In this document: in pieces, positions 2,198-49,560 of the stretch
Layout: every line of letters starts with the position of its first letter
Numbering within the stretch: position 1 is the stretch's first letter
NCBI GenBank assembly: GCA_046075565.1
Contig: JBJTQJ010000052.1
Location: 32,001-96,000, forward strand
Source: Verrucomicrobiales bacterium
GTDB taxonomy: Bacteria; Verrucomicrobiota; Verrucomicrobiia; Verrucomicrobiales; SLCJ01
Direction: 5' to 3'
Length of the DNA: 64,000 nucleotides
Notes under the pieces: model-generated
What the model was told of the DNA's origin: nothing
Database searches by the model: none
The model's input: the letters and a program-made list of their open reading frames with translations, nothing else
Made by a program: the position numbers and the translations under genes

Positions 2198-4612
2198 TCA
2201 CCGATATTCGAGCTTGGTGGTAACGGTCGCTTCGCCGTCGCTGCGGAAGCGCACCCAATAGGCTTGGAAAGCCTCCGGGAATGTGTGATCCATCGAACCA
2301 TTGACCTCGAAGGTCTGGTAGGGAGCCCAACGGCCGGTGCCATCCAGATCGATTTCGACGGCGATATTCACCGCTTTATCCGACTGGAGGGAAAGCGACT
2401 TTTGATCATATCCGGTCATCAAATACGGGTCGGAAACTTCCCCCGCCTTCACGGTGGTTGCGTGCCATGGCCCTCCGCTACCGCGGGCTTTGCCCATTTT
2501 CCAGATGTCGTCGATGGCTCCGGCCCAGAGCGCGGCTTTGCCATCCTCGGAGCGAATCACATGGGGATTGTCTCCGGCGCTTGTGGGCGTGACTCCGGAG
2601 ATGATGAATAGTCCGCGATACGAACAGAAGTCGTGGATGGAGAGATTGTGAGTGGCGACCGGCCGGAGCTTGGCGAAACCTCCCGCATTCTCGGCGGGAA
2701 GTTCATAGAAGCTGCCATGGACGTGCAGCAAATCGCGTTCGGTGGCGACTTCGCGGGCGACGCGATAGGACCCCGCGATACCGGCTTTGTCCATGCTGGC
2801 ATCTCCCTTGGGCAAGCGCCAACGACGGCCCGCATCATCGATGATGAGGATGGAGCCGGGATCATTCACATAGACATTTTTCGGAACCGAGGCGTGATCG
2901 AGCGTGTGTTTGAGCAGGCCTTCATCGGCGGTAGGCACGAGCCGGGTATTCGCATCGAGTTCGTATGCTCCCATGGCCTTGCCTGTTTGGTCCATGGCGG
3001 CGAAAGCGAGGGTGCGTTTGTTTTGATCCCGGGCGCGTAAAACTCCAGCGCTCGCGGACTCCTTGGCCGAATCCAATCCGAGACCGGCAAAGATGGCATC
3101 ATTTTCCATTCCGCGCGGATCGCGGTTGGATAGGTGAAACCACGCCGTGATGGCGGGAACGGGCCGGTTGCTCGTCAGCCTGACCCACTCGCCTTGGATG
3201 CCACCAAGATCCACCCACTGGTAAGCCTTGCCGGTGAGTGAAATCTCCTGCGCGTCTTTCCATTCGCCCGTGCCGTTGGCATCGACGTCGATCCGAATGA
3301 CGAGCCCATCGAGCGCCCCCTCCGGAAGATGGAGGTGCAGTGCTTTGCGGTCATACCCGGCAATGAGGAAAGGATCGGAAGGGACGCCAGCTTCGACGGC
3401 ATCACCAACCCAAACGCCGCCCCGTCCAATGGCCGGGCCGAAGGAATCGAGTTTGGCCGGTTCGACAAACCAAAGGTTCGACTGGGACTGCGGTGCGGCG
3501 ATTTCTCCTTTCGCTTTGCGTTTGTTGAGAAACTCCGATTTCGCGGTGTCGTCACATCCGAAGGCGATACGGTCGCCCCAGCGTGCGAAATCGCCGATGA
3601 CTTTGAGGTAGTTCGACCGCGGGCGGATACCGGCGTGTTTTCCGCCGCCGAAGTCGCGAGGAAACCGCCAGAAGGTGCCGTGCATGGTCATCAGAAAATC
3701 TTCTTCCCCGATCTCGCGGATCCGCGGCCATTCGGTATTCCATCCGTGCGCACCGTCATAGGAATGCGAACCCTTCGGCAAACGCCGGAAACTCCAACCG
3801 GATTTTGCATCACGCGTGCCGAGAATCAAAGAGCGGTAATCCCACCCGATGGTCCAGATCGGATCCGTAGCGGGATGCGGGTTACCCGTGATGCCGCCGG
3901 GACCGGTGACTTCGGTGAATTGATTTCGGCGCACAACGGTCCATTTGTCGGCTTGCCCATCCCATTCCGCCAGGACACCGCTTGGTGTCTCGGGCTTGCT
4001 TTTCGCATCGGATCCGTATTCACCGTTGTTCGCATAGACATAGACCCCTTGGCCCGAATAGAAGCCCTTTCCATGATAACCGGGCAGGTTCGCCTTGCGC
4101 GGGCTTCTTTCGGTTGCCGTGTCAGCCCATAGCTCACGGGTTTCGAGGGTCTTCACATCAACTTCATAGATCCCCTCCTCCATCGTGGCGGTGACCACTT
4201 TGTTCGCGGGATCCGTAAGATGACGCGCTGTTCCCGTTGGCCGGCCGAGCATCTTCTTGTATGGAACGGCCCGAACTTTGCCCCCGGCGTCGATGGCGTA
4301 GGGTCCCATAAAAAGTTGATTCGACTCCAAATGAACAAGCCGGTTCGCGGGTGTGCCGCCGATAGATTCCGGATGCACGGTGAATGAACCATCCTTGCCC
4401 AGGGAATAGAGCTTGTCGGAGGAGCCGGACGGACTGTGAGGTGCATAGGTCAACCACCACACTCGATCCGCCCATGGCACCACGGCACCAGTTCCACATT
4501 CGCCTTCATTATTGAAGGAAGCGATGGCGGGGTTGATGCCGGAAATCTCAACGGGAGCCGCCATCAGTGGAGAGGCGGCAAGCAGGACGAGGAATGTGGA
4601 GCGGGGAAACAT
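2198..4612 (-). CDS. Large secreted protein of unknown function with an internally duplicated domain
   Basis: ~804-aa ORF with a signal peptide (MFPRSTFLVLLAASPLMA); GG.W....V.AG..SDP.L..GYD.K motif occurs twice. Confidence 0.85.
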   Translation of the reverse strand: MFPRSTFLVLLAASPLMAAPVEISGINPAIASFNNEGECGTGAVVPWADRVWWLTYAPHSPSGSSDKLYSLGKDGSFTVHPESIGGTPANRLVHLESNQLFMGPYAIDAGGKVRAVPYKKMLGRPTGTARHLTDPANKVVTATMEEGIYEVDVKTLETRELWADTATERSPRKANLPGYHGKGFYSGQGVYVYANNGEYGSDAKSKPETPSGVLAEWDGQADKWTVVRRNQFTEVTGPGGITGNPHPATDPIWTIGWDYRSLILGTRDAKSGWSFRRLPKGSHSYDGAHGWNTEWPRIREIGEEDFLMTMHGTFWRFPRDFGGGKHAGIRPRSNYLKVIGDFARWGDRIAFGCDDTAKSEFLNKRKAKGEIAAPQSQSNLWFVEPAKLDSFGPAIGRGGVWVGDAVEAGVPSDPFLIAGYDRKALHLHLPEGALDGLVIRIDVDANGTGEWKDAQEISLTGKAYQWVDLGGIQGEWVRLTSNRPVPAITAWFHLSNRDPRGMENDAIFAGLGLDSAKESASAGVLRARDQNKRTLAFAAMDQTGKAMGAYELDANTRLVPTADEGLLKHTLDHASVPKNVYVNDPGSILIIDDAGRRWRLPKGDASMDKAGIAGSYRVAREVATERDLLHVHGSFYELPAENAGGFAKLRPVATHNLSIHDFCSYRGLFIISGVTPTSAGDNPHVIRSEDGKAALWAGAIDDIWKMGKARGSGGPWHATTVKAGEVSDPYLMTGYDQKSLSLQSDKAVNIAVEIDLDGTGRWAPYQTFEVNGSMDHTFPEAFQAYWVRFRSDGEATVTTKLEYR

Positions 4613-28399: not shown

Positions 28400-28474
28400 T
28401 GGCAGGGCAGGAGGGACTCGAACCCCCAACCAACGGTTTTGGAGACCGCTACTCTACCATTGAGCTACTGCCCT
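28400..28474 (-). tRNA. tRNA-Trp (CCA)
   Basis: AGGGCAGTAGCTCAATGGTAGAGTAGCGGTCTCCAAAACCGTTGGTTGGGGGTTCGAGTCCCTCCTGCCCTGCCA cloverleaf, CCA end encoded. Confidence 0.97.
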
Positions 28475-29844: not shown

Positions 29845-29919
<75 letters not shown>

Positions 29920-43507: not shown

Positions 43508-44296
43508 TCAAGTCCCGAGCCAACGATGGAAATTTTCCTGCAGACGTTGTGATAACTCTGATGGCGGAAGACCGCGCCATGTCCCGAGGATTTCCGCATA
43601 GCGCGCGAGATTGCCGGGATGATGCCGCCTCGGGTTGTCGAGGTGATGGGTTCGGCACTCTTCCGGAGCGGCCATATCGGGCGCATCCGTTTCGATGAGG
43701 ATGTTTTCCAATGGCATCGAGGAAAAGGTCTCGCGGGCCGCGCCTTTACGGGGCTGCAGGGCGTAGCCTCCGAACCCTAACAAACACCCGTCTTCAATCC
43801 ACACACGCGCTCGATCCGGGCTTCCGGTGAAGCCGTGGAGCAAGCAACGTCCCGGGCGGCGTGGCAATGTCGGCCATTGGCGTTCGAGATCTTCCCATGC
43901 TTTCAGGCAATGGATCGTGACCGCGCGCCCGAGGTCAGCGGCCAATTCCATCTGGGAGACAAAGACCCCGCTCTGGATGTTGATGTCAGGGCCTTTTACC
44001 CAACGATCGAGTCCGATTTCCCCAACCGGGCAACCCGGGAATTGCTCGAGATAGCCAGCCAATGTTTCCAGCCAAGCCGGGGTGCGGTCCGCAACGTGCC
44101 ATGGATGCAAACCGAAAGAGGGGATGACAAACCCGGGAAACTCCCTCGCCAAACGTGCTACTTCCGACCAGTCGCTTTCACGGGTTCCATTGACCACCGC
44201 GCGTCCAATGCCGAGATCTTGCAGCGACGCGACAAATCCGGCGTCGAGTGGTGGCAGTCGCGAATCGTGCAGGTGATTGTGGGCATCAATCCACAT
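43508..44296 (-). CDS. tatD: TatD family hydrolase
   Basis: IDAHNHL, GLHPW, VGEIGLD, LLHGF, ILIETDAP. Confidence 0.93.
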   Translation of the reverse strand: MWIDAHNHLHDSRLPPLDAGFVASLQDLGIGRAVVNGTRESDWSEVARLAREFPGFVIPSFGLHPWHVADRTPAWLETLAGYLEQFPGCPVGEIGLDRWVKGPDINIQSGVFVSQMELAADLGRAVTIHCLKAWEDLERQWPTLPRRPGRCLLHGFTGSPDRARVWIEDGCLLGFGGYALQPRKGAARETFSSMPLENILIETDAPDMAAPEECRTHHLDNPRRHHPGNLARYAEILGTWRGLPPSELSQRLQENFHRWLGT

Positions 44297-44720
44297 GGGA
44301 ATCCAGCGCCTCTTTTGCGAGAGTTTGGATACGCGTCACCACGGATGCGAGTCCGTTCAGACGCGTCGGGGTGATCTGACGTTCCAGTTTCAAGCGGGCA
44401 GGCCAATCGAGATTGATGGCAGCCAATTCCCTGGCGGAACAACCATCCGCGAGCCGGACGGTCACGCCGACGAGTCCGCGCACCATGACGGAATCGGCGA
44501 GGACGCGAAAATGAAGGCTGGTGATATCACCATCCACCGCGAGATGAACCCTCGACACGCAACCGTGAACGCGGTTTGTTTCGGTACCGAGTGCTTCGGG
44601 AAGTTCGGTCGCTTTTTTCCCCCAATTCGCGAGCGCGCCCAATCGCTCCTGAGGATCCGGCAGTAGAAGCATGTCTTCCACCAACGTGTCCAAGCGGGCT
44701 TCGATTTCCATGCGGCTCAT
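44286..44720 (-). CDS. sufE: SufE family Fe-S assembly protein
   Basis: VHGCVSRV, ADSVMVRGL, ITPTRLNGL. Confidence 0.9.
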   Translation of the reverse strand: MSRMEIEARLDTLVEDMLLLPDPQERLGALANWGKKATELPEALGTETNRVHGCVSRVHLAVDGDITSLHFRVLADSVMVRGLVGVTVRLADGCSARELAAINLDWPARLKLERQITPTRLNGLASVVTRIQTLAKEALDSHVD

Positions 44721-45259
44721 GGTGCCAGCGCTTGTTCAATGGCCGCGATGACCTCCGGGCTCTCCGGTTTTTGTTTTGGCTCGAAACGGGCCAGTGGTTT
44801 CCCATCCTTCCCGATGAGGAATTTGCCGAAGTTCCACTTCACGTCACCGGGGAAAGCGCCATCCTTGCCGGTGAGGGCAGTATAAAGCGGATGCTGTTCC
44901 GCGCCCTTCACGTGGATTTTTTCCATGAGGGGAAAACTGACCTTGAAACGATTGCTGCAGAATTCCTGGATTTCCTCGGCGGTGCCGGGTTCTTGTCCTC
45001 CGAAGTCATTGCAGGGAAAAGCGATGACCGTGAAGCCCTTGGCGGAGAATCGCTGGTGAATTTTCTCGAGTTCCTCGTATTGCGGGGTCAGTCCGCATTT
45101 GGACGCGGTATTCACCACCAGCACCACCTTACCGCGATGGGCTGCCAGGCTGGTGCTCTCTCCGGTGATGGTTTTGAAGGGAATTTCGGCAAGGTCACCG
45201 GCCAGAGCGCAAACGCCGGAACCGAGAATGGCGAGGGTGGAAAGGAAAATGCGGATCAT
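44717..45259 (-). CDS. Glutathione peroxidase (Cys-type, signal peptide)
   Basis: VNTASKCGLT, FPCNDFGGQEPG, KWNFGKFL. Confidence 0.95.
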   Translation of the reverse strand: MIRIFLSTLAILGSGVCALAGDLAEIPFKTITGESTSLAAHRGKVVLVVNTASKCGLTPQYEELEKIHQRFSAKGFTVIAFPCNDFGGQEPGTAEEIQEFCSNRFKVSFPLMEKIHVKGAEQHPLYTALTGKDGAFPGDVKWNFGKFLIGKDGKPLARFEPKQKPESPEVIAAIEQALAP

Positions 45260-45355: not shown

Positions 45356-46165
45356 TCACGGAACATTTTCGGAACGATGCGGGTTCCAGAAACCATTCTC
45401 CTCATCGGGGCCGAACCAGCCGAGGCCGGCAGCATCCGCGTCCCCGCCATGGGGGTTCTCACCGACCGCCCGGGTATTTTTTGGTTCGGCGGTCACGCGT
45501 CCATCGCACCAGGCGACGAGGGCTTTTCCATTCGCGCGGAAATGCACGGTGGGTGAGGGGCGTTGGCCGCTCGGACCGGCGCCGAAATCCCAGAAGGGCG
45601 GTTCGCAATAAGGGTATTCCTGAATTCCACCTTCGCGCGCGTAGGCCGTGGTCGCGAACATGACGGTGTGTGCGGGATTGCCGACACGGCCCGGATGTTC
45701 GGGAATCCGCAGGCCGCTCGCGCGGTCGAATTTTCCTCCCGGCCGGCCGCCGATGTATTGCGCGTTGTATCCATATCCCCCGGTGCCGGTTTCAAAACTC
45801 TCCTTGCCTTCGACCATGGCCGTGAGCAAAGGACAGGGTGTAATCTGACGCGATTTTCCCAGATAGGGGGCGAGGAATCCATCTTCCGGAGCAAATGCCT
45901 GACCTCCTTTGCGCGCGCCGTGCCAGCGCTTGTTGTTTGTCCGGTCATCGGCCGGAGCGAAGGTGCCGTGATCCGCGACATACAGCAGATTGGCGGCGGC
46001 CAGTTGCCCGAGGTTCTGGCTACTGCGTGCGATGCGGGCGCCTGTGACGGCTTTCTGCAAGCTTCCAAAACCAACAACCGCCAGCACCGCGATCACGACG
46101 AGCACGATGAGCAGCTCGACGAGCGTGAAGCCGGGGCGTCGGAAGTTGGCAGTTGGAAAATTCAT
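45356..46165 (-). CDS. Prepilin-type N-terminal cleavage/methylation protein, H-X9-DG-like C-terminus
   Basis: RPGFTLVELLIVLVVIAVLA; SQNLGQL..A..LY..DH; GYGYN; HFRANGKALVAWCDG; start overlaps the upstream stop (TGATG). Confidence 0.9.
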   Translation of the reverse strand: MNFPTANFRRPGFTLVELLIVLVVIAVLAVVGFGSLQKAVTGARIARSSQNLGQLAAANLLYVADHGTFAPADDRTNNKRWHGARKGGQAFAPEDGFLAPYLGKSRQITPCPLLTAMVEGKESFETGTGGYGYNAQYIGGRPGGKFDRASGLRIPEHPGRVGNPAHTVMFATTAYAREGGIQEYPYCEPPFWDFGAGPSGQRPSPTVHFRANGKALVAWCDGRVTAEPKNTRAVGENPHGGDADAAGLGWFGPDEENGFWNPHRSENVP

Positions 46166-47439
46166 CAGGGCGTAGTGGGCCGGACGGCGAGTCGGAAATG
46201 GGCGCTGGGAGAGGAAGGTAAGGGCAAAGTGACGGTTTGGCGACGGATAACTCCGATGCTGGCGATGGGTGAGGCCGAAACGTCGCCCAGAGTGGGGGAA
46301 AAGGGCGCGACGGGTTTGAATGCCCCGCCATCCGTGGAACGTGCGATGGTGTCCCAATCTTTGAGATTGAGGGAGCGTTGCACTTCCAGAACCAGTCCCC
46401 GGGCACGCGTGTCGCGGTTGAATTCCAGCACCACGGAGCCGTAGGTGATGTTGATGGACATCGCTGGTTCGTTTTCCCTTCGCGTCGGTTCGCGGCCGAG
46501 GGCAAACTCGAGGGCATTCGAACAACCATCATCATCCGCATCGACTAACCAGGCCGACGATTCGGACGGAATCTCTTTGATGCCGACCCATGTCGTGAAA
46601 TCAACCGGTGTCGAGATCCCGCCGATGGCTTCGAGGTCGAAACCACCCGAGCCGGTGGTGACCGATGGGTCGTAGATTGGCGATCCTTCGCTATCGAAAA
46701 ACTGCCCGGTGCCGGGAATATCGACGACCCGCACATGAGTGATGGCGTTGAGATTGACAGCCCCACTAACAACCACTGAATGCGACGTGAGTTGCGAAAG
46801 ATCAAACGGTGTGCCCCAGGAAATTCCGTAACCATTCGCGTGTTTGCCCGCGAGGTTGAAGACATTGGTGGCATTAAAGACTCCATAAGCGGTAATAGAC
46901 GATGTGCTCAACGAACGCGACGGAAACCGCGCGAAGACGTTGCCATTGCTCGACACCTCAATGTAGGCGAGTTCGCCGAAAATCTGGTTGCCACTCGAGA
47001 ATCCATTTTCAAAGACCGCGAGGTCGGCGCCGGGAAGATCGGCAATCGGACGCGCCAGGGTAATGGTGATGTGGCCGGGCAGGAAGCCGCTGGTGACCTG
47101 TGTGGCGGTCAAATCGCCGAGCGAAACGGTGTCGAGATAATGATCTCCGGTGACCGGGCCGAGGGCCCACTGGGGATCGTCATTCGTGTCGTCCCCCGGA
47201 TTCGCGCTTTCGTAGCTCACGACTTGATTCGCCCACGTGAAGAATAATGGATTCACCCGATTCGCGGCACCCGGTTCTCCATCGAGTCCGGTAGCACCTT
47301 CTCCATCCGGACCGATGAAGCCGGGAATTCCGGCGTCGGCTTTTGTAGGATCCGATCGTGGCCCGGAATACGGACCGGCGGCGGCCAATCCCGCAAGCAC
47401 CATGACCGAGCACGCAATGATATGAGAGGGTAATTTCAC
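46165..47439 (-). CDS. Secreted cell-surface protein, possibly a cobalamin-binding (BtuH-like) domain, plus a Verrucomicrobia-type C-terminal domain
   Basis: Signal peptide; VSLGD, GADLAVFENGF, ELAYIEVSSNG, NLAGK, GTPFDL, ITHVRVVD, GFDLEAIG; tail DADDDGCSNALEFALG...FRLAV; function is inferred. Confidence 0.8.
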   Translation of the reverse strand: MKLPSHIIACSVMVLAGLAAAGPYSGPRSDPTKADAGIPGFIGPDGEGATGLDGEPGAANRVNPLFFTWANQVVSYESANPGDDTNDDPQWALGPVTGDHYLDTVSLGDLTATQVTSGFLPGHITITLARPIADLPGADLAVFENGFSSGNQIFGELAYIEVSSNGNVFARFPSRSLSTSSITAYGVFNATNVFNLAGKHANGYGISWGTPFDLSQLTSHSVVVSGAVNLNAITHVRVVDIPGTGQFFDSEGSPIYDPSVTTGSGGFDLEAIGGISTPVDFTTWVGIKEIPSESSAWLVDADDDGCSNALEFALGREPTRRENEPAMSINITYGSVVLEFNRDTRARGLVLEVQRSLNLKDWDTIARSTDGGAFKPVAPFSPTLGDVSASPIASIGVIRRQTVTLPLPSSPSAHFRLAVRPTTP

Positions 47440-48413
47440 GCGGAAATTCTCCGGCGGCGGATACCAAGCATGAAAACTCCGGCAAGGCCAAGAACGGCCG
47501 CGCCCGGTTCGGGAATCGGCAATGTCGAGAGAGGCGCATATCCATAGGAAACGGCATCACCGCTTCCAAAGCCCGCCCGATTCACCCAGCCGAGATACTC
47601 TGTTCCGCCATTCGTGAAGGTGGCTAGACTCGCGTAGTTGGAGTTGTTGAAACCGGGCGCGACGAGGGTTCCTGTCTCACTGGTGCCGAGATCGAGCACG
47701 CGGATGCCATTGATTTGATATCCGCTCGCGTAGAGCCGGTTGGTTGTCGAATCCACCGCCAGGTAACCACTCACGCCAAGATTCGCTACAAAAGTGCCGT
47801 TCGCGAGGGTGAGCGGCGTTCCTGCGATGGCCGTGGTGATTTGCGCGGCGGTATAGCGGTAGATGTTATTGTCGTTGGCATCGAGCCCGGCATGGGCGAG
47901 ATAGACATTTCCGACATCATCCATGGCGATGCCACCCGAGAAATCGGAGAACGCGGTAATCAGGGTTGTGATGGTGCCACCGGATGAAATGTGATAGAGA
48001 GCCGATGAACCGAATCCCTGCGAACCGACCATGAGCAAGGCGCCCGATCCGTAGTTGACGCCCGCATAAGGATTATTGGGCGGGGCTATCGCGGCGTTGA
48101 AAGTGGTGGCGGTATTCGTGCCGTCGTAACTTCGCGTGCCGGAGTTGGAATATCCGATGTGCGTGGAAGTGATGAAGCTTGAATCACCTGCTGGTGCGTT
48201 CGTGTAAGGAGTCGCCGTCGACGCTCCGAAAGTATCCTGCCGGATGAGGTTTCCGTTGTGGCCGTATACAAAACGACCGTCCGGCAGATGGCCAAGAGCG
48301 GTATTGGTGAAGTTTTGCGTATTCGGCAGGGGCAACACAGTCCATGACGCGCGGGCCGTGGAAACAAAACCGGCCGCGATGGCGGCCGCCAATACAAACA
48401 ATGATTTTTTCAT
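47436..48413 (-). CDS. PEP-CTERM sorting domain protein, beta-propeller-like
   Basis: Signal peptide MKKSLFVLAAAIAAGFVSTARA; blade-like GGIAMDDVGNVYL and YLAVDSTTNRLY; tail IPEPGAAVLGLAGVFMLGIRRRR; AAGGA SD. Confidence 0.9.
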   Translation of the reverse strand: MKKSLFVLAAAIAAGFVSTARASWTVLPLPNTQNFTNTALGHLPDGRFVYGHNGNLIRQDTFGASTATPYTNAPAGDSSFITSTHIGYSNSGTRSYDGTNTATTFNAAIAPPNNPYAGVNYGSGALLMVGSQGFGSSALYHISSGGTITTLITAFSDFSGGIAMDDVGNVYLAHAGLDANDNNIYRYTAAQITTAIAGTPLTLANGTFVANLGVSGYLAVDSTTNRLYASGYQINGIRVLDLGTSETGTLVAPGFNNSNYASLATFTNGGTEYLGWVNRAGFGSGDAVSYGYAPLSTLPIPEPGAAVLGLAGVFMLGIRRRRISA

Positions 48414-48536
48414 GTGGTGTCCTTTGCAAAGACGGGGTGGATGAAAAGGACAATCCTTTTCCCCGAATGCGAAAGGACTACCCCCGCACGGACGTTTTCG
48501 CGACGCCGTTGTCCATTTCAGGACGGTGCGGTTTTC

Positions 48537-48612
48537 TCCGCCGGTTCGAACCCGGACTTTGACCTTTGCGCGACAGTGAGGGACTTTCACCCTGCTTTCC
48601 TAGGCCGGCGGA
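48537..48612 (-). promoter_or_regulatory. Cobalamin riboswitch (short AdoCbl-variant type)
   Basis: Minus strand CCGCCGG-CCT-AGGAAAG-CAGGGTGAAAGTCCCT-CACTGTCGCGCAAAGGTCA-AAGTCCGGG-TTCGAA-CCGGCGG: closing stem plus characteristic AGGAAAG, GGTG.AA.TCC, CACTGT.GCGCAA and AGTCCG blocks. Confidence 0.88.
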
Positions 48613-48801
48613 TTGGTTGGATAATGGAAAGATCGAATCGAAACCGCAGGCGGCTTCGTTGGTGACAAGATGCTTTAGGATACACGGGTCGTCAAGTATC
48701 GGATTCCTTCAAATCTCCCGTCAAAGTCGGCGAATCCAAATATCCAACGAATCCGGCAGATCCCGGGGTGGCAAGCGCCCGGCCGCCGCGTATGGTGGGG
48801 C

Positions 48802-49560
48802 ATGACATCTGCAGTGGAGCCCAATCCGGCGCGTCGCCGCCCCACCTTCATCCAGGTGGCCCTCATGGTTTTGCCGATTGGCACGGTCGTGCTGGGAACC
48901 ATCGCCATGCTCTGGTATTTCCACGAAGGTTCACGCCCGGGAGCAAAGGAAGAACGCGGCCTTTACACCAAGGAACCAACGGCGGCTTCCATTCGTGACA
49001 GCGTGCGGAAACTCTCCCTGCCCCCGTTGGCGGTGCGCGGGGAAGCCACGGAAGCCGGTGGAGTAGGCTGGCAGGCGACGATGAGTTTGATCGAAGGCGC
49101 GACTGGCGAAACGAACATGGGTTATCAACCGGTCCTGCATGAATACGACTCCGGCGCCGGAAAATGGCGGCATCTCTGGGTGGACAACTCCGGCAAACGC
49201 AACCTCACCGAGATCATCGAGGTGCGGGCACGCAGCGTCCCGACCGGCAATCGCGAGGGACTGGCGGTGCATTTGCCCATCGCGGTGGCCCTCGAACTGG
49301 CCCAAGCCTTTGCGGGTACGGAAAATCGACGCACCATACGTTTTGTTTTTCTCGGCGGAGGTCAGGATCCGACGGGCGAGCAATCCTATGCCGAGTTGAT
49401 GAAAGACCGGCGCATCAAGGTGCAGGGGGTTTTTGATCTCGATGCCTCGGATTTCCGCGCCGCCGCCTGCCTCGATGCCTCCGGCCAAATCGACGATACC
49501 GCTCTCATGCGGGAGGTGGAAAACCTGCGGCAGAATATCCGGCGCGCCGCCAACCAGTGA
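48802..49560 (+). CDS. Membrane-anchored hypothetical protein, degenerate M28 peptidase-like fold
   Basis: N-terminal TM; VALELAQAF...RRTIRFVFL resembles the M28 core; metal ligands not evident. Confidence 0.65.
   Translation: MTSAVEPNPARRRPTFIQVALMVLPIGTVVLGTIAMLWYFHEGSRPGAKEERGLYTKEPTAASIRDSVRKLSLPPLAVRGEATEAGGVGWQATMSLIEGATGETNMGYQPVLHEYDSGAGKWRHLWVDNSGKRNLTEIIEVRARSVPTGNREGLAVHLPIAVALELAQAFAGTENRRTIRFVFLGGGQDPTGEQSYAELMKDRRIKVQGVFDLDASDFRAAACLDASGQIDDTALMREVENLRQNIRRAANQ

Follow-up and report, generated by a model that had tools for sequence, protein, structure and literature searches.

A cobalamin riboswitch precedes a conserved operon of exported and pilin-like proteins in Verrucomicrobiota, a candidate module for vitamin B12 scavenging

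In a 64,000-nt stretch of the genome of a Verrucomicrobiales bacterium (assembly GCA_046075565.1, contig JBJTQJ010000052.1, positions 32,001–96,000; this whole stretch is called the window), three overlapping genes follow an RNA leader that we take to be a class-II cobalamin riboswitch. The genes encode P0001 (gene 1), an exported protein with a PEP-CTERM-type tail, P0002 (gene 2), a secreted protein, and P0003 (gene 3), a pilin-like protein (Table 1). We consider it likely that they form a cobalamin-repressed envelope operon for the scavenging of vitamin B12, and that this operon represents a conserved module. This reading is favored because independent lines point to it: the RNA itself, its linkage to the same genes in other genomes, the equivalence of the gene 1 slot with that of proven B12 binders, domain fusions, and the needs of the genome. 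The original prediction, made from the letters of the window, had proposed a B12-capture operon. This idea has gained riboswitch linkage, a slot shared with DUF4465 proteins and P0002 domain fusions, and the step of B12 binding keeps the character of a proposal.

The riboswitch and its linkage to the operon

The aptamer of the window matches the whole RF01689 model (positions 1–81) with an E-value of 2e-6 in an Rfam scan of positions 48200–49000 (801 nt). Its 3′ end lies 124 nt ahead of the ATG at 48413, the first one that bears a ribosome-binding site (AAGGA), in agreement with the original prediction of an adenosylcobalamin (AdoCbl)-variant-type riboswitch about 125 nt upstream of the genes. 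A full-length match to the consensus structure, a significant E-value and a position in the 5′ leader are all features expected of an RF01689 leader. The score is nevertheless 1.5 bits below the RF01689 gathering score of 36.5, which weighs against the B12 reading, and a scan of the whole window at the gathering threshold lists two tRNAs only, without RF01689. In the genome of the window, this is the single RF01689 match (150 of 350 first-look candidates scored), and no match to RF00174 was obtained there (150 of 419 first-look candidates scored).

The RNA is highly conserved outside the window. In seven other species representatives, an RF01689-type aptamer precedes the P0003 homologue by 2.3–3.1 kb, and one of these aptamers scores above the gathering score (Table 1). 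Over the 91-nt stretch of the class-II aptamer, mean column identity is 97% (the window and six loci; L094 lies outside the alignment). Pairwise identity to the window aptamer is 91–97%, whereas the DNA of the pilin genes at the same loci is only 59–69% identical. The leader 3′ of the aptamer is also kept in seven class-II loci. RNAalifold predicts 52 pairs, six of which show compensatory double changes, and all six fall downstream of the aptamer. In the minimum free energy (MFE) fold of the window leader, the region of the ribosome-binding site is paired, with a modest z-score of −1.99. From these comparisons of sequences, we take the window RNA to be a genuine, lineage-specific class-II cobalamin riboswitch that scores slightly under the Rfam threshold.

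In most other relatives, a class-I cobalamin riboswitch replaces the class-II RNA. A survey of 60 relatives for P0002 found 17 genomes with a homologue covering the N-terminal domain (loci L003–L019), and at 15 of them the same-strand sequence upstream contains an RF00174 match that exceeds the gathering score. When more flanking sequence was taken for the remaining two loci, RF00174 was matched with 57.3 bits in G031 and with 30.9 bits in G005 (cut-off 31.5). In total, RF00174 thus exceeds the gathering score at 16 of the 17 P0002 loci, and some cobalamin riboswitch is present at all 17. In four of these genomes (G013, G005, G031 and G057), the operon riboswitch is the sole RF00174 match found, with 137 of 312–953 candidates scored per genome.

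The pilin gene leads to the same linkage. A search of species-representative genomes with the pilin alignment gave 184 stretches with a relative, of which the best 80 were kept. These belong to Verrucomicrobiales, Chthoniobacterales (including Chthoniobacter flavus Ellin428), Methylacidiphilales, Puniceicoccaceae and Opitutaceae. In C. flavus, the locus (L085, NZ_ABVL01000005.1, positions 110225-121007) comprises a class-I riboswitch, genes for a P0001-like protein of 402 aa and a P0002 protein of 446 aa, and the pilin. A covariance model (R1), built from 16 RF00174 hits, detects a riboswitch in the orientation of the genes at 46 of these 80 loci. Upstream sequence of 3000 nt or more is available for 53 pilin loci, and at 49 of these a cobalamin riboswitch lies 2.0–3.1 kb upstream (42 class-I by R1 and seven class-II by RF01689). 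A P0002 homologue is present at 73 of the 80 pilin loci, and five of the seven loci lacking one have the pilin at a contig edge. Recurrence of the riboswitch-linked genes, proposed earlier as a check, was therefore found across the Verrucomicrobiota. At one locus (L119:3468-3965), two class-I matches, at 3792-3965 (plus strand) and 3468-3604 (minus strand), stand back to back, which suggests two divergent B12-controlled units.

Given its score under the Rfam gathering threshold, the aptamer could be a chance match in front of an ordinary surface-protein operon unlinked to B12. We regard this as extremely improbable. Next to the E-value, the riboswitch is set beyond chance because the same RNA precedes the same genes in seven other species, and class-I riboswitches take its place at the 42 pilin loci and at the 17 P0002 loci of relatives.

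Gene 1: different proteins in one slot

P0001 ends in PIPEPGAAVLGLAGVFMLGIRRRRISA, where PIPEPG is followed by a hydrophobic stretch and RRRR, the arrangement of a PEP-CTERM motif. In an alignment of 16 family members, P301, E302 and P303 are invariant and precede an R-rich tail. PF07589 did not match P0001 at E ≤ 1, with MYXO-CTERM responding only weakly (E 0.087), and in this small family of 18 proteins, two homologues have a precomputed PF07589 match. The PEP-CTERM protein of the original prediction is retained, and for its beta-propeller-like blades the matches are weak: SGL at E 0.081 and, for the P0001 profile against the PDB, the NHL propeller of PknD at E 7.4e-4. No BtuG chain appeared at E ≤ 1 in the latter search. 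Also, the signal peptide, with A-R-A as its cleavage site, lacks a lipobox Cys, and P0001 is not, as BtuG is, a surface lipoprotein encoded beside btuB. PF14717 (DUF4465) matched neither P0001 nor P0002.

Across related loci, the gene 1 position is held by different proteins. DUF4465 is above its cut-off in 18 of 42 gene 1 proteins, and a PEP-CTERM signal is found in 26 of 42 at E ≤ 0.01. These DUF4465 proteins match B12-bound structures with E-values of 5e-59 (9hmu, D5EK51) and 5e-37 (9fct, BtuJ1). According to PMC13398666, B12 is retained by the DUF4465 proteins of Coraliomargarita akajimensis and Haloferula luteola, both of them Verrucomicrobia. The alternatives to DUF4465 in this slot are a P0001-like protein or a domain of ~230 aa and unassigned fold, which we designated as 'X'. 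The X-domain profile had no match in the PDB, and in hhalign comparisons X and DUF4465 have the PEP-CTERM tail alone in common. P0001-like proteins were recognized at 11 loci in the first round of a hidden Markov model (HMM) search and at seven more in the second; the HMM drifts from round 2 onwards via shared signal and PEP-CTERM segments, and round 3 was discarded.

On a tree of 52 pilins, the type of gene 1 changes at least 15 times. Well-supported branches of the pilin tree force at least five changes for the DUF4465 label and at least seven for the P0001-like label. Sister pairs differ in gene 1 as well: L088 (DUF4465) is paired with L101 (P0001-like), and L079 (DUF4465) with L085 (P0001-like). 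Our chief reason for assigning P0001 the task of a DUF4465 B12 binder is that proteins have displaced one another repeatedly in one slot, behind one kind of riboswitch.

P0002: a widespread domain with B12-related partners

P0002 consists of a signal peptide, a domain of ~270 aa (residues ~25–290), an acidic TSP3/dockerin-like linker and a C-terminal domain of ~110 aa. The sequence motifs quoted in the original prediction are present in the translations (VFENGF, GTPFDL and GGFDLEA in P0002, and GFTLVEL in P0003). P0002 has no Pfam or NCBIfam match. Its family is large, with 2096 matches in a word-indexed search and 1333 representatives at E ≤ 1e-30 in a profile search of a library clustered at 50%. 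The conserved part comprises the N-terminal ~270 residues, which occur in many multidomain proteins.

Domain fusions were scanned in 67 of the 150 best representatives (nearly all of those longer than 500 aa plus six short ones). The P0002 domain shares a chain with DUF4465 in 17 of the 67 (5 of 25 and 12 of 42 in the two parts of the scan). One representative, P0373, combines the P0002 domain with four copies of DUF4430 and an alpha-alpha toroid; DUF4430 is described in excerpts of PMC4350170 as the C-terminal domain of transcobalamins. Beta-propeller families are found in eight of the 67, and a prepilin motif lies downstream of the domain in one.

A distant relation to BtuH is suggested by profile searches against the PDB. 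The top chain for P0002-family profiles is 8blw_B, a 663-aa 'YncE family protein', matched at residues 393–480, and its E-value improves from 0.38 to 0.012 and then 0.0038 as the profile is widened. In excerpts of PMC10404256, BtuG1 is described as BtuG with a C-terminal BtuH-like domain of ~250 residues, and the code 8blw occurs once in that text. From the chain length and this description, we infer that 8blw_B is BtuG1 and that residues 393–480 belong to its BtuH-like part. On the strength of these profile matches, true homology of the P0002 domain to the BtuH-type domain appears fairly probable. BtuH homologues carry N-terminal PKD or beta-propeller domains and bind structural calcium (excerpts of PMC8941943), an architecture that the P0002 family resembles as judged from its domain composition. 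Of the earlier BtuG- and BtuH-like guesses, what stands are the weak propeller matches of P0001 and this partial 8blw_B match of P0002, with neither a BtuG chain nor BtuH2 (7BIZ) among the hits. By hhalign, no relationship was detected between P0002 and either DUF4465 (probability 2.6%) or the X domain. A likeness of the P0002 profile to the HasA hemophore (E 0.095–0.62) disappeared with broader profiles and was rejected.

The same domain company allows for another interpretation, in which the operon is an adhesion response to B12 starvation that displays adhesins and a pilin for attachment to B12-producing partners or particles. Pilins commonly mediate attachment, many large adhesin-like proteins carry the P0002 domain together with PKD, LRR_5, Ig or RTX modules, and relatives have many large surface proteins that share with P0002 its C-terminal domain alone. 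Against adhesion stand the slot shared with DUF4465 proteins shown to bind B12, the fusions of the P0002 domain to DUF4465 and transcobalamin-like domains, and the TonB-dependent receptor within the operon of G031, which has the order riboswitch, DUF4465, TonB-dependent receptor, P0002-like protein. We therefore consider adhesion improbable as the purpose of the operon.

B12 requirement and transport inventory of the genome

The genome of the window (3.9 Mb, 100% complete) encodes MetH (1781 bits) and two other proteins with a B12-binding domain. TP_methylase genes number just two and CobN is absent, which is evidence against B12 synthesis de novo. DUF4465 was not found in this genome. The machinery for export and anchoring is encoded elsewhere in it: two exosortases (PF09721) and a prepilin peptidase (PF01478, on contig C119) score above their cut-offs.

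Known transport genes are few, and both BtuF and BtuCD are lacking. Peripla_BP_2 (PF01497) was not found in the genome, and the two FecCD matches are Zn/Mn-type permeases. There are two TonB-dependent receptors, one siderophore-like and one split over three ORFs (open reading frames). The latter is heme/B12-like, lies at G000:C124:46942-48977 (L132:2942-4977) in consecutive ORFs of 182, 254 and 186 aa, and could be either a pseudogene with a frameshift or an artefact of assembly. Within the order, PF01497 (BtuF/FhuD-type) was detected in just 3 of 61 genomes, compared with 13 of 14 well-known genomes used as a control. The missing periplasmic and inner-membrane steps thus pose a question for this group in general. 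We had considered the absence of BtuF as a mark of operon carriers, and rejected it because 58 of the 61 relatives are without BtuF regardless of the operon.

P0003: a conserved pilin with a large head

P0003 has a prepilin N-terminus, matched above the cut-offs by PF07963 (E 3.7e-7) and TIGR02532 (E 5.4e-7). In an alignment of 40 family members, mean column identity is 56% and 55 columns are invariant, among which Trp, Tyr, His and Gly are frequent. No structure for P0002 or P0003 was found in the ESM Atlas. The AlphaFold model (predicted local distance difference test, pLDDT, 78.8; predicted template modelling score, pTM, 0.77) has a long N-terminal helix (residues 15–66) and a beta-sheet (168–229) with large ordered loops in between, corresponding to the type IV pilin fold of a long helix on an antiparallel beta-sheet. 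A Foldseek search of the PDB with this model gave nothing at E ≤ 0.001, and the ranked structural matches are all pilins or pseudopilins, without a periplasmic binding protein. The predicted model thus places P0003 in the pilin fold, not in the periplasmic-binding-protein fold.

The original prediction had assigned P0003 to the H-X9-DG type, as some sources do for members of its family. The spacing is in fact H-X12-DG (HFRANGKALVAWCDG) and is kept across the family; P0003 was matched neither by TIGR04294 (at E ≤ 1) nor by PF07596. Among 40 family members, TIGR04294 matches 19 (best E 0.0051) and PF07596 three (best E 0.025), and the nearest Atlas clusters carry N_methyl together with SBP_bac_10 (PF07596; score 0.98). 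Judged by these matches, P0003 is only a distant relative of the H-X9-DG/DUF1559 class. It is single-copy in the genome, where other prepilin-like genes have the N-terminal helix alone in common with it. One such prepilin N-terminus lies on the minus strand of the window at ~1947-2111 (G000:C52:33947-34111), with 45% identity to P0003 over the 55-residue helix only. A GF[TS]LxE motif occurs in ~16 ORFs of the genome, and five of those also have H-X(9-12)-DG.

What a pilin does in such an operon can be explained in several ways. We favor, as our inference, a cargo-linked role as a minor (pseudo)pilin over a secretion-only pseudopilin and over a tethered periplasmic binder. In its full form, which we put forward tentatively and by analogy with competence pili, which take up DNA, the B12-regulated minor (pseudo)pilin may bind cobalamin or the cobalamin-loaded surface binder and move it inward by way of a fiber that is short and perhaps retractile; this is possible, with the odds somewhat against it.

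Instead, P0003 could be a cargo-specific pseudopilin for the type II secretion-like export of P0002, and perhaps of gene 1 proteins, through the outer membrane, and never touch B12. The 55 invariant columns of the head, with their many aromatic and His residues, fit the recognition of a ligand or partner better than a piston subunit. In addition, a pilin and P0002 are not always kept together. In the genome G001, from the window's own family, a riboswitch is followed by an X-like PEP-CTERM protein and by a prepilin with 28% identity to P0003, with no P0002, and a genus designated g7 has a riboswitch and P0002-type genes without the pilin. A role limited to secretion is accordingly rather doubtful.

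P0003 might also stand in for BtuF, as a periplasmic B12 binder that is tethered to the inner membrane by its pilin helix and never enters a fiber. Such a role would suit the lack of Peripla_BP_2 in the genome and its rarity among relatives, the very conserved head, and the nearest Atlas clusters with PF07596, whose Pfam name is SBP_bac_10. The pilin-fold model and its ranked matches argue the other way, no partner inner-membrane transporter was found, and BtuF is lacking in the order with or without the operon, so that its absence is not specific to P0003. We consider this explanation unlikely.

Proposed mechanism and points against it

Under the B12-scavenging reading, a scarcity of B12 would make the class-II riboswitch leave the leader open, allowing the three proteins to be made. 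P0001 would be exported and fixed to the surface by an exosortase, where its propeller-like domain may bind a corrinoid, in the slot that DUF4465 (BtuJ-type) B12 binders occupy in sister lineages. P0002, probably a remote relative of the BtuH B12-binding domain, would be secreted and act as a second binder or as a hand-over protein. P0003 would be cut by the prepilin peptidase and serve as a dedicated minor (pseudo)pilin linking capture at the surface to the periplasm; it might bind B12 directly or else, as part of a short pilus or pseudopilus, carry or present the complex of binder and B12. From the evidence above, we presume that B12 regulates the operon, that P0001 and P0002 bind it, and that the pilin plays the part described. 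A role as a B12-independent isoenzyme was rejected, as all three products are exported envelope proteins.

Besides the score of the aptamer, several observations count against this reading. Four of the 53 pilin loci (L084, L107, L110 and L121) have no riboswitch when searched with R1 and RF01689. Neither P0001 nor P0002 is significantly similar to BtuG, BtuH2 (7BIZ), DUF4465 or any Pfam family. The 8blw_B match is marginal, extends over ~85 residues and is not accompanied by one to BtuH2, and since the P0002 domain is found in many proteins with PKD, LRR, Ig or RTX modules, it may be a general surface module, not a B12 binder. The P0001-like label at seven loci depends on the drift-prone second HMM round. 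The operon contains neither an outer- nor an inner-membrane transporter, and the genome revealed no B12 route through the inner membrane. Given two short MetE-like genes, the organism may also be able to do without B12. Finally, G001, with a PEP-CTERM protein and a distant pilin in the absence of P0002, and g7, without the pilin, imply that no single protein is indispensable everywhere.

Operon boundaries, variants and other features

The genes of the window overlap by GTGA (P0001/P0002) and TGATG (P0002/P0003), as had been noted originally and as their shared coordinates bear out (Table 1). The statement that the operon contains no btuB, btuCDF, energy-coupling factor (ECF) or B12-enzyme gene is likewise correct, and none adjoins it. 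Downstream lie genes for glutathione peroxidase, SufE and TatD, and upstream an unassigned ORF (252 aa) and aspartokinase. The glutathione peroxidase, SufE and TatD genes (window 43511-45259, minus strand) are on the same strand as the pilin, with overlapping stops and starts. The btuE gene of Escherichia coli, in the btuCED operon, likewise encodes a glutathione peroxidase. The three downstream genes were rejected as parts of the operon, as tblastn with their proteins, and likewise with the 252-aa ORF, gave no match in the 80 survey loci. No conserved fourth gene was found 3′ of the pilin in the survey loci either. With no conserved gene after the pilin and the three downstream genes unlinked, the unit consists of the riboswitch, gene 1, P0002 and the pilin.

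A number of related loci have rearranged these parts. In genus g7, P0002 and P0001-like domains are joined in one protein. Behind the riboswitch, g7 loci (L041, L046, L047 and L048) have an X-domain PEP-CTERM protein, this fusion protein (688–791 aa, with the N-terminal part of P0002, a P0001-like domain and the C-terminal part of P0002), a protein of ~730 aa with He_PIG/PKD-like domains and a P0002-like domain at its end, and an AmiA-like amidase with a twin-arginine translocation (TAT) signal. Elsewhere, an X domain and a P0002-like domain share single ORFs of 589–633 aa, in which a PEP-CTERM motif falls mid-protein (L038:8828-10594). X and P0002-like fusions are also found in L035, L039, L042, L044, L112–L114 and L128, and in protein P0364. 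The internal PEP-CTERM motif is at residues 200–223 (L038) and 245–268 (P0364), and would need a second membrane crossing or internal processing. At L040:6068-8122, a 685-aa ORF (P0295: 658 aa) has, after a P0002-like domain, an internal prepilin motif and a pilin head; either genes 2 and 3 are fused here or an internal start was overlooked.

Around the leader, a promoter-like site upstream of the aptamer is weak, as the region gave one site against 1.5 expected from shuffles. A terminator-like hairpin on the minus strand (window 48371-48388) has seven G-C pairs followed by GTTTTGTTTC. It sits in signal-peptide codons within the first 45 nt of the P0001 coding sequence, and may be due to chance or represent an attenuator. 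The two tRNA genes of the window (RF00005) are on the minus strand at 28403-28474 (70.2 bits) and 29848-29919 (72.1 bits).

Table 1. Features of the operon in the window (positions are those of the window) and class-II aptamers at related loci
Feature	Position	Strand	Basis or score
Promoter-like site: TTGACG, 18-nt spacer, GATACT	48695..48724	-	consensus scan, 9/12 matches, ~85 nt upstream of aptamer
Class-II cobalamin riboswitch aptamer (AdoCbl-II type)	48538..48611	-	RF01689, 35.0 bits
Structured leader/expression platform, aptamer to start codon, with hairpin pairing the AAGGA ribosome-binding site	48414..48537	-	RNAalifold, MFE fold
P0001, 325 aa: Sec signal peptide, ~270-aa beta-propeller-like domain, PEP-CTERM-type tail	47436..48413	-	translation
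P0002, 424 aa, GTG start	46165..47439	-	translation
P0003, 269 aa: prepilin-type (GFTLVEL), large highly conserved globular head	45356..46165	-	translation
L087 class-II aptamer			36.9 bits (above gathering score)
L092 class-II aptamer			35.1 bits
L096 class-II aptamer			35.1 bits
L102 class-II aptamer			35.1 bits
L094 class-II aptamer			33.3 bits
L074 class-II aptamer (gene 1 = DUF4465)			32.5 bits
L064 class-II aptamer			30.6 bits

Comparison with known systems

The closest counterparts are the BtuB-BtuG-BtuH-BtuJ loci of Bacteroides (excerpts of PMC10404256, PMC8941943 and PMC13398666), which share with the module riboswitch control and several surface accessory proteins for B12. DUF4465 (BtuJ) is gene 1 at 18 of 42 related loci, and both systems combine and shuffle modules of the beta-propeller and BtuH types. 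Unlike the Bacteroides proteins, which are anchored as lipoproteins, those of the module would be anchored by PEP-CTERM and exosortase. The window operon also lacks BtuB, BtuF and BtuCD, and its most conserved member is a pilin-like gene with no Bacteroides counterpart.

As to the RNA, the window riboswitch shares the full 81-position match and the conserved core with RF01689 class-II riboswitches, and differs from typical ones as an almost invariant lineage variant under the cut-off with a conserved two-hairpin platform. P0003 has a prepilin N-terminus, a globular head and a His...DG near the C-terminus in common with the H-X9-DG/DUF1559 prepilins (PF07596, TIGR04294) of bacteria of the Planctomycetes–Verrucomicrobia–Chlamydiae (PVC) group. 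In contrast to these, it belongs to a distinct, tightly conserved, single-copy subfamily with H-X12-DG that is tied to B12 riboswitches. To the DNA-uptake pilin ComP (5hz7, 2nba), it is similar in the N-terminal helix only; the cargo of ComP is DNA, whereas that of P0003, for which uptake is proposed here, would be a vitamin or a complex of vitamin and binder.

No description of the module was found in the literature searched on DUF4465, cobalamin riboswitches, exosortase, and prepilins or pseudopilins. The words pilin, PEP-CTERM and Verrucomicrob are absent from the main text of PMC13398666, whose supplements may hold genome-neighborhood data. Riboswitch-controlled capture of B12 at the surface is already known from Bacteroides; new are the chemistry of anchoring, the families of P0001 and P0002 and, most of all, a pilin dedicated to the module.

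Implications

B12, a keystone micronutrient, has to be scavenged by most of the bacteria that require it. To our knowledge, surface B12 capture has been worked out only for Bacteroides. The module makes B12 uptake by bacteria without BtuF and BtuCD testable, and with it the job of the widespread, unnamed P0002 domain, with its 1333 cluster representatives and frequent fusions to DUF4465. It also brings to notice a nearly invariant class-II riboswitch variant that the Rfam threshold misses.

With relatives of the pilin in 184 stretches of the species-representative collection across the Verrucomicrobiota, including the cultured Chthoniobacter flavus Ellin428, the role of at least one member of the enigmatic prepilin-like expansion of PVC bacteria becomes testable as well. 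If P0003 does act in uptake, this would give a first ligand and role to a member of the greatly expanded class of DUF1559/H-X9-DG-like prepilins, and would suggest that other members of the class are cargo-specific uptake pilins.

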